In this document: one piece after another, positions 39,541 to 45,341 of the stretch
Position numbering within the stretch: position 1 is the first letter of the stretch
Layout of the letters: each line of letters begins with the position of its first letter
Origin: Gammaproteobacteria bacterium
Lineage (GTDB): Bacteria > Pseudomonadota > Gammaproteobacteria > Eutrophobiales > Eutrophobiaceae
Assembly (NCBI GenBank): GCA_963422205.2
Contig: CAXMWX010000009.1
Location: forward strand, 160,001-224,000
Reading direction: 5' to 3'
DNA: 64,000 nt
Translations under genes and position numbers: made by a program
Notes under the pieces: model-generated
Databases searched by the model: none
What the model was told of the DNA's origin: nothing
What the model saw: the letters and a program-made list of their open reading frames with translations, nothing else

Positions 39541-40725
39541 GTGATGAATCCAGGGCTTGCTCATCTTAGTTTTTTGCTTGTTGATGATGATGTGTCGTCT
39601 TATTTGCTCACGGAGAGGTTGTTGCAAAGGATAGGCATCACCGAAATCATCGCTGCCGTTAATGGCAAGGACGCCATAGAAAAGCTGATCCATGCCAGTC
39701 GTCCCTTTGATGTGATCATTTGCGATCTGAACATGCCGGTCATGGACGGGATCCAGTTTCTACGGCATCTGGCCGTGATAAAATACGCAGGCACCATCAT
39801 CTTCCTGAGTGGTGAGGATGAGCGCATATTATCCTCCGCCTGCCAGTTAGCAGAGGCACATAAGTTAAAAATCCTCACCGCCATCTCAAAGCCGGTCTCA
39901 AAAGCACAGCTACTGGATCGGCTGGCCGAGCTCAAACAGCAGGCGGATGGCCGGCTGGGGATGGCGGCAGTGCCGATCGATAAAGATGAGTTAATTACCG
40001 GACTAAAGCAAGATGCGCTGGAATTTGTCTTGCAGCCAAAGGTTGAGATCAGCTCCGGGAAGACCACCGGGGCAGAGGTGCTGGCACGCTGGAATCATTC
40101 AAGCCGCGGCTTGCTGGAGCCTGGCTCGTTTATTCCCCTGGCGGAGGAGATCGGCGCCATCAATGAATTGACCCGGCTGATCTACCGGAAGGCGATTGAG
40201 CAGGTCAAGCAATGGCAGCAGAAGAACATCGATATGAAGGTGTCTGTCAATATTCCCATGCACTCGCTGGAAGAGTTGTCATTTTTTGATTTTATTATTG
40301 CCTCGATAGAGGCCGAACACATTGATCCCCGTGTGTTGATCCTGGAAGTGACCGAGACACAGATCATGCAGAACGTAGCCAGCGCCCTGGAGACCCTGAC
40401 CCGTCTGGGTATGAGGAAGCTGGGTTTGTCCATTGATGATTTCGGTACCGGCTACTCCTCGATGGAGCAATTAAAGCAGATTCCGTTTACGGAACTAAAG
40501 GTCGATCGGGCCTTTGTCTTCGGTGCTGACAAGGATACGGCCATGCAGGCTATTTTGGAGTCCAGCATTGATCTGGCGCACAAGTTAAACCTGGAGATCG
40601 TCGCCGAAGGCGTGGAGACACAGGCCGAGTGTGAGTTGTTATCGGAGTTAGGCTGTGATTGCGCGCAGGGCTATTATTATGCCAAGCCGATGAGCAGCGA
40701 TGAGTTTGAAGCCTGGTTAAGGTAG
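39541..40725 (+). CDS. Response regulator with EAL c-di-GMP phosphodiesterase domain
   Basis: REC domain (LLVDDD, CDLNMPVMDG) and EAL domain (QPK, AEVLARW, IDDFGTGYSS, EGVE, QGY). Confidence 0.93.
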   Translation: MMNPGLAHLSFLLVDDDVSSYLLTERLLQRIGITEIIAAVNGKDAIEKLIHASRPFDVIICDLNMPVMDGIQFLRHLAVIKYAGTIIFLSGEDERILSSACQLAEAHKLKILTAISKPVSKAQLLDRLAELKQQADGRLGMAAVPIDKDELITGLKQDALEFVLQPKVEISSGKTTGAEVLARWNHSSRGLLEPGSFIPLAEEIGAINELTRLIYRKAIEQVKQWQQKNIDMKVSVNIPMHSLEELSFFDFIIASIEAEHIDPRVLILEVTETQIMQNVASALETLTRLGMRKLGLSIDDFGTGYSSMEQLKQIPFTELKVDRAFVFGADKDTAMQAILESSIDLAHKLNLEIVAEGVETQAECELLSELGCDCAQGYYYAKPMSSDEFEAWLR

Positions 40726-40914
40726 TCAGGTCAGGCAAGTTTCAGGCAAATCTCCGCCGGGCGGGTTGGCCATAAAAAGCCGGCATCTCTCCATGGGGGA
40801 TGAGGAGAATGTCTGTGCTGGTGATAAGCTCATACCCACCCCCGTGGCCTTGCCCTGCCAGTGAACCGAGGTTCTGATATACTGCCCCCCAGTCAATTCT
40901 GATGCCGCCCCCCC

Positions 40915-41632
40915 GTATCTGATTCCTTGTTTAAGCTGGTCGTGTCGAAGTTTGGTTGTATCGGTGTGGCCCCTTTGCTTGATCTATACTCAATGAGTGT
41001 GCTGACCGGCAGAGGACCTGGAGGCAAGAGCGTTTACCAGTGGCGCGAAACTTGCCCCGGATTCCTGTCAGGCGATCGTTGAGTCGTTGCTTGCTTATCG
41101 GCAAGGATAAAAGAATACAACATGACGGACATGACCCCGACCAACCGGGGCTATCTTATCCTGCCCTTTGATCCGATGTTAGGTGTGCGCCGGGAATTTA
41201 TCGATCCTGCTGAAATGAGCTTGTTCAATGCTGACATCATTGAGGTGCTGGCAGCCCCGGTGCAGTACACTACATACAAGGGCTGCTGGATGGCGTTATT
41301 GCGGCACTGCCGAAGATCGTTGCCGATGCCGGGACTGTCGTGGCGGCGGCAGAGTTCAGCAATCCTTACGCTGCCGCCAAAGCCCTGGCTGCACTCACGC
41401 TGTTCGAGACGGTCGCCAGGCCCACCACCCGGACCTGTTTTATGGTGCAGGAGTCGGCGCGGTATATTCCGCTTGCCGCTGCCGGCCATGGAGTTTTGTG
41501 CATGGCAGCGGGGCTGGCCGTGCCGCCCGTGAAATGGAAAAGGCTGGCGATACGGTGTATCGTCGCTCTCAACCGCCCGATGGCCAGCCTCGTCGTAACA
41601 AAAAACTGCTGGACAAACCCGTATTCGAATAG
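40915..41632 (+). pseudogene. mtd: F420-dependent methylenetetrahydromethanopterin dehydrogenase (archaeal-type Mtd), degraded
   Basis: Joined frames give KFGCIGVAPLLDL / ILNECADR / EDLEARAFTSGAKL ... GYLILPFDPMLGVRREFIDPAEMSLFNADIIEVLA / EFSNPYAAAKALAA...CFMVQESARYIPLAAAGH / AREMEKAGDTVYR...KLLDKP, colinear with Mtd motifs. Confidence 0.85.
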
Positions 41633-41808
41633 GCTGGCCAGCAAATTCACCAGAATATCTGCCCAGAAGTATTCGCCCCAGGAATATCTTCATCAGAAAT
41701 AGCTGCTCAGGAAATGACCGCTGGCATGACTTTCTGCACCTTAGATGCCAGCAGCAGACCAATATGCCATAATGACCAGGCGGGCATCGGTGATGCAGGG
41801 ATAAACTT

Positions 41809-42582
41809 ATGACAAAAATCATTGCGGTGGCAAATCAGAAGGGCGGGGTAGGCAAGACCACCACCAGCGTCAATCTGGCCGCCTCCATAGCGGCGACTCG
41901 GCGCACAACCCTGCTGATTGATCTGGACCCGCAGGGCAATGCCACGATGGGCAGCGGCGTGGATAAGGGCCGGGTTAAGTTAAGCAGTTATGATGTACTG
42001 ATGACGGAGAGGGGCCTGTCGGAGGCCGTGGTGGCCGCACCGGGGGGTGATTTTGATTTACTGCCGGGCAATGCCGACCTGACCGGCGCTGAGGTGGCCT
42101 TGCTGGAAGAGATAGCACGGGAGGTTCGCCTACGCAGGGCGATTGAGGCCATCAAAAACCCGTATGATTTTATCTTCATTGACTGCCCCCCCGCCTTGAA
42201 CATGCTGACAATCAACGCCCTGGTGGCTGCAGATGCGGTCATCATCCCCATGCAGTGTGAGTATTATGCCTTGGAAGGGTTGGCCGCATTGCAGCAGACG
42301 ATTAAAAAAATACGCCGGTTTCTGAATCCGCATCTGAAGGTGGAAGGGCTGTTACGCACCATGTATGACCCGCGCAATAACTTAGCTAACGAGGTTTCAG
42401 CCGAGTTGCTGGAGCGCTACGGTGACAAGGTCTATCGCACCATCATCCCGCGCAATGTGCGCCTGGCCGAGGCCCCCAGCTACGGCCTGCCGGTGATCAG
42501 ATACGATAAGAGCTCGCGCGGCGCCTTGGCCTATCTGGCACTGGCCGGCGAGATGCTCAACCGCGAGGAAAAGGCTGCCTGA
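41809..42582 (+). CDS. parA: Chromosome partitioning ATPase Soj/ParA
   Basis: NQKGGVGKTT, DLDPQGNAT, QCEYYALEG, IPRNVRLAEAPS. Confidence 0.97.
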   Translation: MTKIIAVANQKGGVGKTTTSVNLAASIAATRRTTLLIDLDPQGNATMGSGVDKGRVKLSSYDVLMTERGLSEAVVAAPGGDFDLLPGNADLTGAEVALLEEIAREVRLRRAIEAIKNPYDFIFIDCPPALNMLTINALVAADAVIIPMQCEYYALEGLAALQQTIKKIRRFLNPHLKVEGLLRTMYDPRNNLANEVSAELLERYGDKVYRTIIPRNVRLAEAPSYGLPVIRYDKSSRGALAYLALAGEMLNREEKAA

Positions 42583-42628: not shown

Positions 42629-43513
42629 ATGGCGGCGAGAAAACGCGGCTTGGGTAAGGGCCTGGATGCCTTGTTAGGCCCGAACACGGCCACGGATTTT
42701 ACCAGCGTGGACGGGGCGGAGGAGTTGCGACATATTCCGGTCGATCTGCTCCAGCGCAGCACCTGCCAGCCCCGGACTGAGTTTGATAAAGACAGCTTGC
42801 AGGAATTGTCCGAATCCATCCGCCAGCAAGGCGTGGTGCAGCCGGTCATCGTGCGTCCGCTGGCAAACAGCGAGAAATTCGAAATTATTGCCGGCGAGCG
42901 GCGCTGGCGGGCAGCGCAAATGGCGGCCCTGCATGAAGTACCCGCCATCGTAAGGCAGATGGATGATCAGGCCTGCATGTGCCTCGCCCTGATTGAGAAT
43001 ATTCAGCGAGAGGACTTAAACCCCCTGGATACGGCCGCTGGCCTGGCCCGCCTGATTGATGAGTTTGCCATGACCCATGAGCAGGTGTCACAGGCTGTGG
43101 GGCGTTCCAGGGCAGCGGTGAGTAATCTGTTACGTCTGCTGGAATTGGCCTCGCCAGTAAAACAGCTGCTGCTGGCCGGCAAGCTGGATATGGGACATGC
43201 CCGTGCTTTGCTGAGCCTGCCCGCCGCCCGGCAGCTTGCCGCTGCCCGGCAGATTGTCCGCCAGGGGCTGACCGTCAGGGCCGCAGAAGCATTGGCTAAA
43301 GATCAGCAAGGGACTGAAGATAAAAAGAAAAAGAGGGCGCAAAAGAAAGACCCGGATATTCAAAGACTGGAAAACGCGCTGGCCGAACAGCTGGGTGCAG
43401 AAACCGCCATCAGGCACCAGAAAAACGGCAGGGGCGTGTTGCGGATTCGTTATAATTCAGTGCATGAACTGGACGGGATCCTGGCCCGGATGGGTAATAA
43501 ACTGCCCGAATAA
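42629..43513 (+). CDS. parB: Chromosome partitioning protein ParB
   Basis: RGLGKGLDALL, QPR, AGERRWRA, LIENIQREDL. Confidence 0.97.
   Translation: MAARKRGLGKGLDALLGPNTATDFTSVDGAEELRHIPVDLLQRSTCQPRTEFDKDSLQELSESIRQQGVVQPVIVRPLANSEKFEIIAGERRWRAAQMAALHEVPAIVRQMDDQACMCLALIENIQREDLNPLDTAAGLARLIDEFAMTHEQVSQAVGRSRAAVSNLLRLLELASPVKQLLLAGKLDMGHARALLSLPAARQLAAARQIVRQGLTVRAAEALAKDQQGTEDKKKKRAQKKDPDIQRLENALAEQLGAETAIRHQKNGRGVLRIRYNSVHELDGILARMGNKLPE

Positions 43514-43730: not shown

Positions 43731-45341
<1,611 letters not shown>

Follow-up and report, generated by a model that had tools for sequence, protein, structure and literature searches.

As shown in Table 1, it was found that a broken gene of the MTD family (PF01993) lies at positions 40915-41632 on the plus strand of the window, the whole stretch of 64,000 nucleotides of gammaproteobacterial DNA that was analysed. 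The family is that of the F420-dependent methylenetetrahydromethanopterin dehydrogenase (Mtd) of archaea. The best overall explanation, to which I give a probability of about 0.85, is a non-functional relic of a vertically inherited MTD-family gene from a bacterial clade of 288-290-residue proteins. The gene would have been inactivated and would have been drifting since, and its role was presumably linked to F420 and tetrahydromethanopterin (H4MPT). In several relatives the gene is intact, and in one of them it adjoins genes for F420 synthesis.

A broken mtd gene and its decay

The region 40900-41640 was cut into five frame pieces for a profile scan. The three C-terminal pieces matched PF01993 significantly and in colinear order along the profile (Table 1). 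Two of them lie above the gathering score of 25 bits, and the third reaches 23.4 bits. NF002162, the NCBIfam equivalog model of F420-dependent Mtd, matches the same three pieces with 53.5, 74.4, and 20.7 bits, all under its cut-off of 297. The two N-terminal pieces (21 and 35 aa) had no Pfam match when scanned alone; by tblastn, they are 82% and 72% identical to an intact orthologue. Apart from a weak aminoglycoside acetyltransferase match (E 0.025), the pieces matched no other family, including Mpt_N (PF09176), the family of MtdA/MtdB, and an Rfam scan of the whole window gave no match. The relic is the sole MTD match in the genome of the window (G000; 2,988,056 bases in 14 contigs, 97.97% complete). 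It shares the PF01993 profile colinearly with the archaeal Mtd of Methanopyrus kandleri (PDB 1qv9/3iqe), the difference being that the present copy is dead. A preliminary description of the window had already assigned the region to F420-dependent Mtd from motifs and had called it a pseudogene. All of the motifs quoted there are present in three forward frames of 40900-41640, and both the assignment and the pseudogene status hold.

The breaks were located with the intact orthologue of a genus-mate (G001, 290 codons) as the reference, in a DNA alignment with a mean column identity of 77%. It was revealed that the relic has five frameshifts, a 131-nt deletion, and an in-frame 24-nt deletion, and that GTA stands in place of the orthologue's ATG. 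Thus, the relic no longer has a start codon followed by about 270-290 uninterrupted codons. The starts of the successive pieces (40915, 40986, 41012, 41097, 41119, 41259, and 41522) fall in frames 1, 0, 2, 0, 1, 0, and 2, consistent with the indels. Four frameshifts, near 40985, 41010, 41258, and 41518, and an internal deletion had been proposed before, and the alignment recovered every one of them; the +1 shift near 41112-41118, the 24-nt deletion, and the missing start codon are additional. The original stop codon, TAG at 41630-41632, remains. The 131-nt deletion takes out orthologue residues 62-104. According to the predicted structure (pLDDT 94), the orthologue has two strand-helix units of its N-terminal alpha/beta core in this segment.

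Table 1. Features of the window and of two compared loci. Positions without a prefix are those of the window; orthologue numbering is that of G001, and breaks were placed by DNA alignment to the G001 orthologue.
Feature	Position	Strand	Evidence or remark
Response regulator with EAL domain	39541..40725	+	intact, upstream neighbour
Piece 1, frame 1	40915..40986	+	orthologue residues ~1-24; 82% identity, 22 aa
Frameshift, -1 nt	near 40985	+	
Piece 2, frame 0	40986..41009	+	ILNECADR stretch with D27N and R29C; alignment
Frameshift, +2 nt	near 41010	+	
Piece 3, frame 2	41012..41098	+	orthologue residues 33-61, ends at the 131-nt deletion; 72%, 29 aa
Deletion, 131 nt (43 codons + 2 nt)	near 41095-41098	+	
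Deletion junction, then IGKDK piece and 1-nt insertion	41095..41118	+	alignment
IGKDK short piece, frame 0	41097-41111	+	
Frameshift, +1 nt	near 41112-41118	+	
Piece 4, frame 1	41119..41256	+	MTD profile 101-143, E 2.1e-15 (scanned as 41119-41283); 73%, 44 aa
Open frame, 223 codons, over relic and start of parA	41151..41822	-	no family match
Frameshift, -1 nt	near 41258	+	
Piece 5, frame 0	41259..41519	+	MTD profile 159-238, E 3.8e-21 (scanned as 41256-41516); holds the 24-nt deletion
In-frame deletion, 24 nt	near 41293	+	
Frameshift, -1 nt	near 41518	+	
Piece 6, frame 2	41522..41632	+	MTD profile 241-273, E 4.4e-5 (scanned as 41516-41629)
parA	41809-42582	+	intact, downstream
parB	42629-43513	+	intact, downstream
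atpI	43731-44117	+	intact, downstream
Second mtd relic, other genus	L050:1504-1623 (G140:C25:51901-52023)		40 residues, orthologue positions 239-278, C-terminal
F420-class LLM gene near mtd, genus g17	L005:2789-3826	-	same gene in L011, L012, L014, L048, L049, L058

The sequence of the relic has drifted as well. Of the columns with at least 95% conservation among 122 intact relatives, the relic covers 84 and is changed at 14 of them; the intact clade members (n=122) have at most five changes each at the same 84 columns, with a median of 1. Changes at residues conserved family-wide are D27N, A134V, L139I, and H271Q, and P71 is gone with the deletion (two alignments were combined by residue number for this statement). 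The dN values to two outgroups are 0.346 and 0.340 for the relic versus 0.288 and 0.269 for the G001 orthologue. Thus, the non-synonymous branch of the relic is about twice that of the orthologue. Since synonymous sites are saturated (pS about 0.74), dN/dS is not usable and the timing is rough. Judging from these sequences, the relic and the gene of the genus-mate seem to have diverged largely under constraint, and the decay is the younger part of the divergence. It had been proposed that the lineage recently carried an F420/H4MPT-linked step. The carriage is borne out by the intact relatives; "recently" can be kept only in the rough sense that the doubled branch and the saturation allow.

The locus and the soundness of the assembly

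The relic is flanked by intact genes (Table 1), and an ABC transporter gene is a further intact neighbour. Since the gene of the EAL-domain response regulator is intact, the assembly is not generally frameshifted near the relic. The antisense frame of 223 codons is probably a chance open frame. Promoter-like sites around the relic (2 versus 0.9 expected) and terminator-like sites (2 versus 1.1 expected) are at chance level. The sister species G001 (locus L004) has its genes in the order mnmG-rsmG-mtd-atpI. The corresponding order in the window is EAL-relic-parA-parB-atpI, with mnmG-rsmG on a different contig (G000 C5:135253-136615). The downstream side, with atpI, is common to the two loci, and the upstream side is rearranged. 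Since the sister species has its intact orthologue beside atpI, the relic was vertically inherited within the genus.

Could the gene in fact be intact in the organism, and could errors of sequencing or assembly account for the frameshifts? Errors are most often single-base indels, and four of the five frameshifts are of this kind; the available comparison is one of contigs, not of raw reads. However, deletions of 131 and 24 nt are atypical of read errors, substitutions have accumulated at conserved columns, and the neighbouring genes are intact. In addition, the contigs of two public runs are identical over 40600-42000 (no differences, no gaps; word depths of 6.95 and 573). These two runs were assembled independently. 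They come from one study and are possibly the source of the assembly, so their agreement gives limited independent support. Taken together, I consider such errors extremely improbable as the explanation. Another idea is that the relic never worked as a gene of this lineage, being recently transferred foreign (archaeal) DNA that was dead on arrival, or part of a contig that was binned wrongly. The family is otherwise archaeal, and its presence in only 9/126 genomes of the host family is patchy. On the other hand, the relic sits inside a contig of 326,720 bases between bacterial genes, and the GC content resembles that of the genome as a whole. The gene most closely related to it is the intact same-genus one on the same side of atpI, and it falls in the bacterial 288-aa clade, apart from the other representatives. 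A foreign origin of this kind is therefore very unlikely, and a vertically inherited gene that was later inactivated is the preferred reading.

Intact mtd genes and their link to F420

How is mtd distributed among the relatives? An MTD match was found in 4 of 61 genomes (G000 and 60 relatives) and, at the level of the family, in nine of 126 genomes: G000, G001, G014, five genomes of the genus g17, and G140. The order-level genome set consists of the same 126 genomes. An intact copy in relatives had been predicted, and seven of the nine genomes do have a full-length mtd: G001 (290 aa) and six more, among them all five g17 genomes. The remaining two are the relic of G000 and a C-terminal remnant in G140, which belongs to another genus. 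Because both G000 and G140 hold relics, mtd has been lost at least twice in the family. The metagenome-assembled genome G014 has three or four mtd copies or fragments (L056 = C2, C266, C217, and L057 = C174), which may be due to strain mixture. At the level of the class, a full-length mtd turned up in three further genomes, from two other families, among 400 that were sampled. The weak MTD matches of G276 and G438 (19.9 and 18.9 bits) are under the cut-off and were dismissed as chance.

The intact proteins resemble the archaeal enzyme closely. Three of them (P0001, P0002, and P0003) score 341.8, 335.4, and 348.5 bits against NF002162 and thus pass the equivalog cut-off of 297. The clade matches the M. 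kandleri Mtd with an E-value of 2.7e-67 over nearly the full length. The predicted structure of the G001 orthologue (pLDDT 94) superposes on 1qv9_A with TM scores of 0.89/0.92 and an rmsd of 2.3 A; the next structural match has a TM score of 0.28-0.31. In 24 non-clade representatives, 31 columns reach at least 90% conservation. At 30 of the 31, at least 90% of 122 clade members keep the same residue, and the exception is a change from Tyr to Phe. The clade also differs from other Mtd proteins in an insertion of nine residues (orthologue residues 111-119).

Among 1.84 billion representatives, 161 proteins match at E <= 0.001. At 50% identity, the 288-aa group falls into a single cluster, with the next representative at 48%; the best 120 matches of a word-indexed search have 58-100% identity. 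Among the matches listed, the proteins that have a name in their source are called F420-dependent methylenetetrahydromethanopterin dehydrogenase and come mostly from metagenome-assembled Gammaproteobacteria, with one labelled as Planctomycetota and one as Thorarchaeota. The clade proteins, 288-290 aa in length, occur mainly in gammaproteobacterial genomes with the H4MPT formaldehyde-oxidation pathway. In contrast to the archaeal Mtd, the host here is a bacterium with the aerobic-methylotroph set Fae/Mch/MtdA. A quick tree was made of 41 rows, of which 17 are clade members and 24 are further representatives (255-300 aa); P0142 and P0163 were omitted because of their length. In this tree, the clade is a single branch (SH-aLRT 100) whose sister consists of two representatives (support 89). 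Two clusters (P0049 and P0113) labelled by several depositors as Candidatus Thorarchaeota sit within the clade. Mis-binning may account for them, or they may be left from a transfer between Asgard archaea and bacteria, for which the tree gives no direction.

In G014, the genes cofD-cofE-cofC-fbiC-mtd follow one another on one strand of a contig, and the four biosynthesis genes score above the NCBIfam cut-offs. A second arrangement, fbiC-mtd / mtd-cofE-cofD, is found on C266 and C217 of this genome. A gene of a KamA-family radical SAM protein lies upstream of cofD in G014. The mtd gene of each of the five g17 genomes has an F420-class LLM gene and/or a SnoaL-like gene as a neighbour; in one of them the LLM gene is about 1.4 kb off, and the contig of another begins just ahead of the SnoaL-like gene. 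The g17 LLM protein belongs to TIGR03559 (F420_Rv3520c; 354.7 bits versus a cut-off of 335). The solved structures that match it best all belong to Mer (E about 2e-21), but with 104.7 bits it stays far under the cut-off of the Mer equivalog model (348.7). No F420 gene is adjacent to the G001 mtd.

The F420 biosynthesis gene fbiC was found in 39 of the 126 family genomes (E <= 1e-60), in 38 of them above the cut-off. It is present in 9/9 MTD-bearing genomes of the family versus 30/117 of the others. Both FbiC and Mch are present in G140 and in the three MTD-bearing genomes of other families. Thus, the genomes with Mtd form a subset of the F420 producers. FbiC is also present in 21 of the 23 genomes of the genus g30, which has no Mtd. 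Therefore, F420 has other uses there, and the co-occurrence alone is weak evidence.

Does the clade then use F420? It may be that the relic is genuine, and that the enzymes of its clade use a different pterin than H4MPT, or a hydride carrier other than F420, such as NADP or FO. The nine-residue insertion and the Tyr-to-Phe change set these enzymes apart, and the G001 mtd has no F420 gene near it. The G014 operon with the full set for F420 biosynthesis speaks against another cofactor, as do the adjoining F420-class LLM genes in g17, the confinement of Mtd to FbiC-positive and Mch-positive genomes, the 30 family-wide residues that are kept, and the bit scores above the equivalog cut-off. Thus, I think a different cofactor unlikely. 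Gene linkage, co-occurrence, and the residues that are conserved point to F420 as the probable cofactor of the bacterial enzyme.

C1 and F420 genes kept by the genome, and what the relic points to

Characterised proteobacterial methylotrophs use MtdA/MtdB. These enzymes catalyse the same reaction step as Mtd in H4MPT-linked formaldehyde oxidation, but they have an unrelated fold (Mpt_N) and a nicotinamide cofactor. Pathway genes were compared in five genomes (G000, G001, G014, G017, and G061; G061 and G146 appear to be the same genome, with equal coordinates). All five have Mch, Fae, an Mpt_N-type dehydrogenase, CofD-family and CofE-family proteins, and FbiC. Mch was found in 107 of the 126 family genomes, and therefore the family largely carries the H4MPT pathway. 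A search for pmoA (PF02461) gave no match in any of the five genomes, and none in the control genomes either, so that an absence of methanotrophy does not follow from it.

In G000, the sole Mpt_N match lies at C7:365429-365668, and the protein matches the Methylorubrum MtdA structures (1lu9, 6tge) with an E-value of 4.9e-94. This MtdA-type gene is likely a functional replacement of the relic, not a homologue. CofD and CofE of G000 are above the equivalog cut-offs, and Fno is above its cut-off. The fbiC gene seemed to be split. It was revealed that the last 290 bases of contig C6 are the reverse complement of the last 290 bases of C9, with 100% identity. Thus, the split is an assembly break, and fbiC read across the overlap is one intact frame of 804 codons. 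A CofC-like gene adjoins Fno; it was assigned without a family-model score and is 31% identical to the CofC of the G014 operon. G000 also has an LLM orthologue, away from the relic, with 56% identity to the mtd-adjacent LLM of g17. Fno, the CofC-like gene, an LLM-family gene, and fbiC lie within about 22 kb of C6 (15716-16967, 27844-28740, and 35531 to the contig end), which looks like a loose F420 neighbourhood. Of the C1 and F420 proteins, G000 thus has Fae, Mch, an MtdA-type enzyme, FbiC, CofD, CofE, and Fno. Since these are kept, G000 has lost only the Mtd step, that is, the F420-linked C1 step.

A possible route can be drawn from these data. Fae would make methylene-H4MPT from formaldehyde, and an intact Mtd would oxidise it to methenyl-H4MPT, the substrate of Mch. 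The hydride of methylene-H4MPT would go to F420, and the resulting F420H2 would pass it to NADP via Fno or be used by F420-dependent LLM enzymes. In G000, the mtd gene would have been inactivated by the 131-nt deletion and several frameshifts and would have drifted since, so that the NADP-dependent MtdA-type enzyme must presumably carry the same step now. F420 synthesis and other F420 enzymes would have been kept. It is proposed that the loss was tolerated because the MtdA-type enzyme made Mtd redundant.

The family assignment is not new, because databases already name these proteins. In a 2021 review on F420, Mtd is given for archaea only, and the reason why Proteobacteria make F420 is called an open question (PMC8498797). 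The mentions of F420 or Mtd in PMC5765558, PMC8547001, PMC8141765, PMC5023235, PMC10974252, and bioRxiv 10.1101/2023.07.16.546273 concern other enzymes or archaea. No paper on bacterial Mtd was found in the openly accessible full texts that were searched. This literature seems to have no description of the bacterial clade, of its link to F420 synthesis in an operon, or of its decay in some lineages.

On balance, I lean towards a broader picture. Methylotrophic Gammaproteobacteria would have a seemingly undescribed clade of bacterial, F420-dependent Mtd, through which the H4MPT-linked oxidation of formaldehyde would reduce F420, and G000, having kept F420 synthesis, would be a natural knockout. 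The clade may also record a crossing between Asgard archaea and bacteria, and in the genus g17 the Mer-like LLM protein encoded near mtd might extend the route to methyl-H4MPT. As an object, the relic is ordinary and inactive. Its use is to direct attention to an F420-linked C1 enzyme of the methanogen type that several genera of bacterial methylotrophs have, apparently in working form. G000, with its dead Mtd and retained F420 genes, and its genus-mate G001, with an intact Mtd, offer a ready-made comparison. If the enzyme has the role proposed here, some of the reducing power that these bacteria gain from formaldehyde oxidation enters the cell as F420H2 and not as NAD(P)H. This would matter for the energetics of methylotrophy and for how the H4MPT pathway evolved between the domains. 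F420 would then have a central catabolic role in these Proteobacteria, and for this group the question of why Proteobacteria make F420 would be answered.
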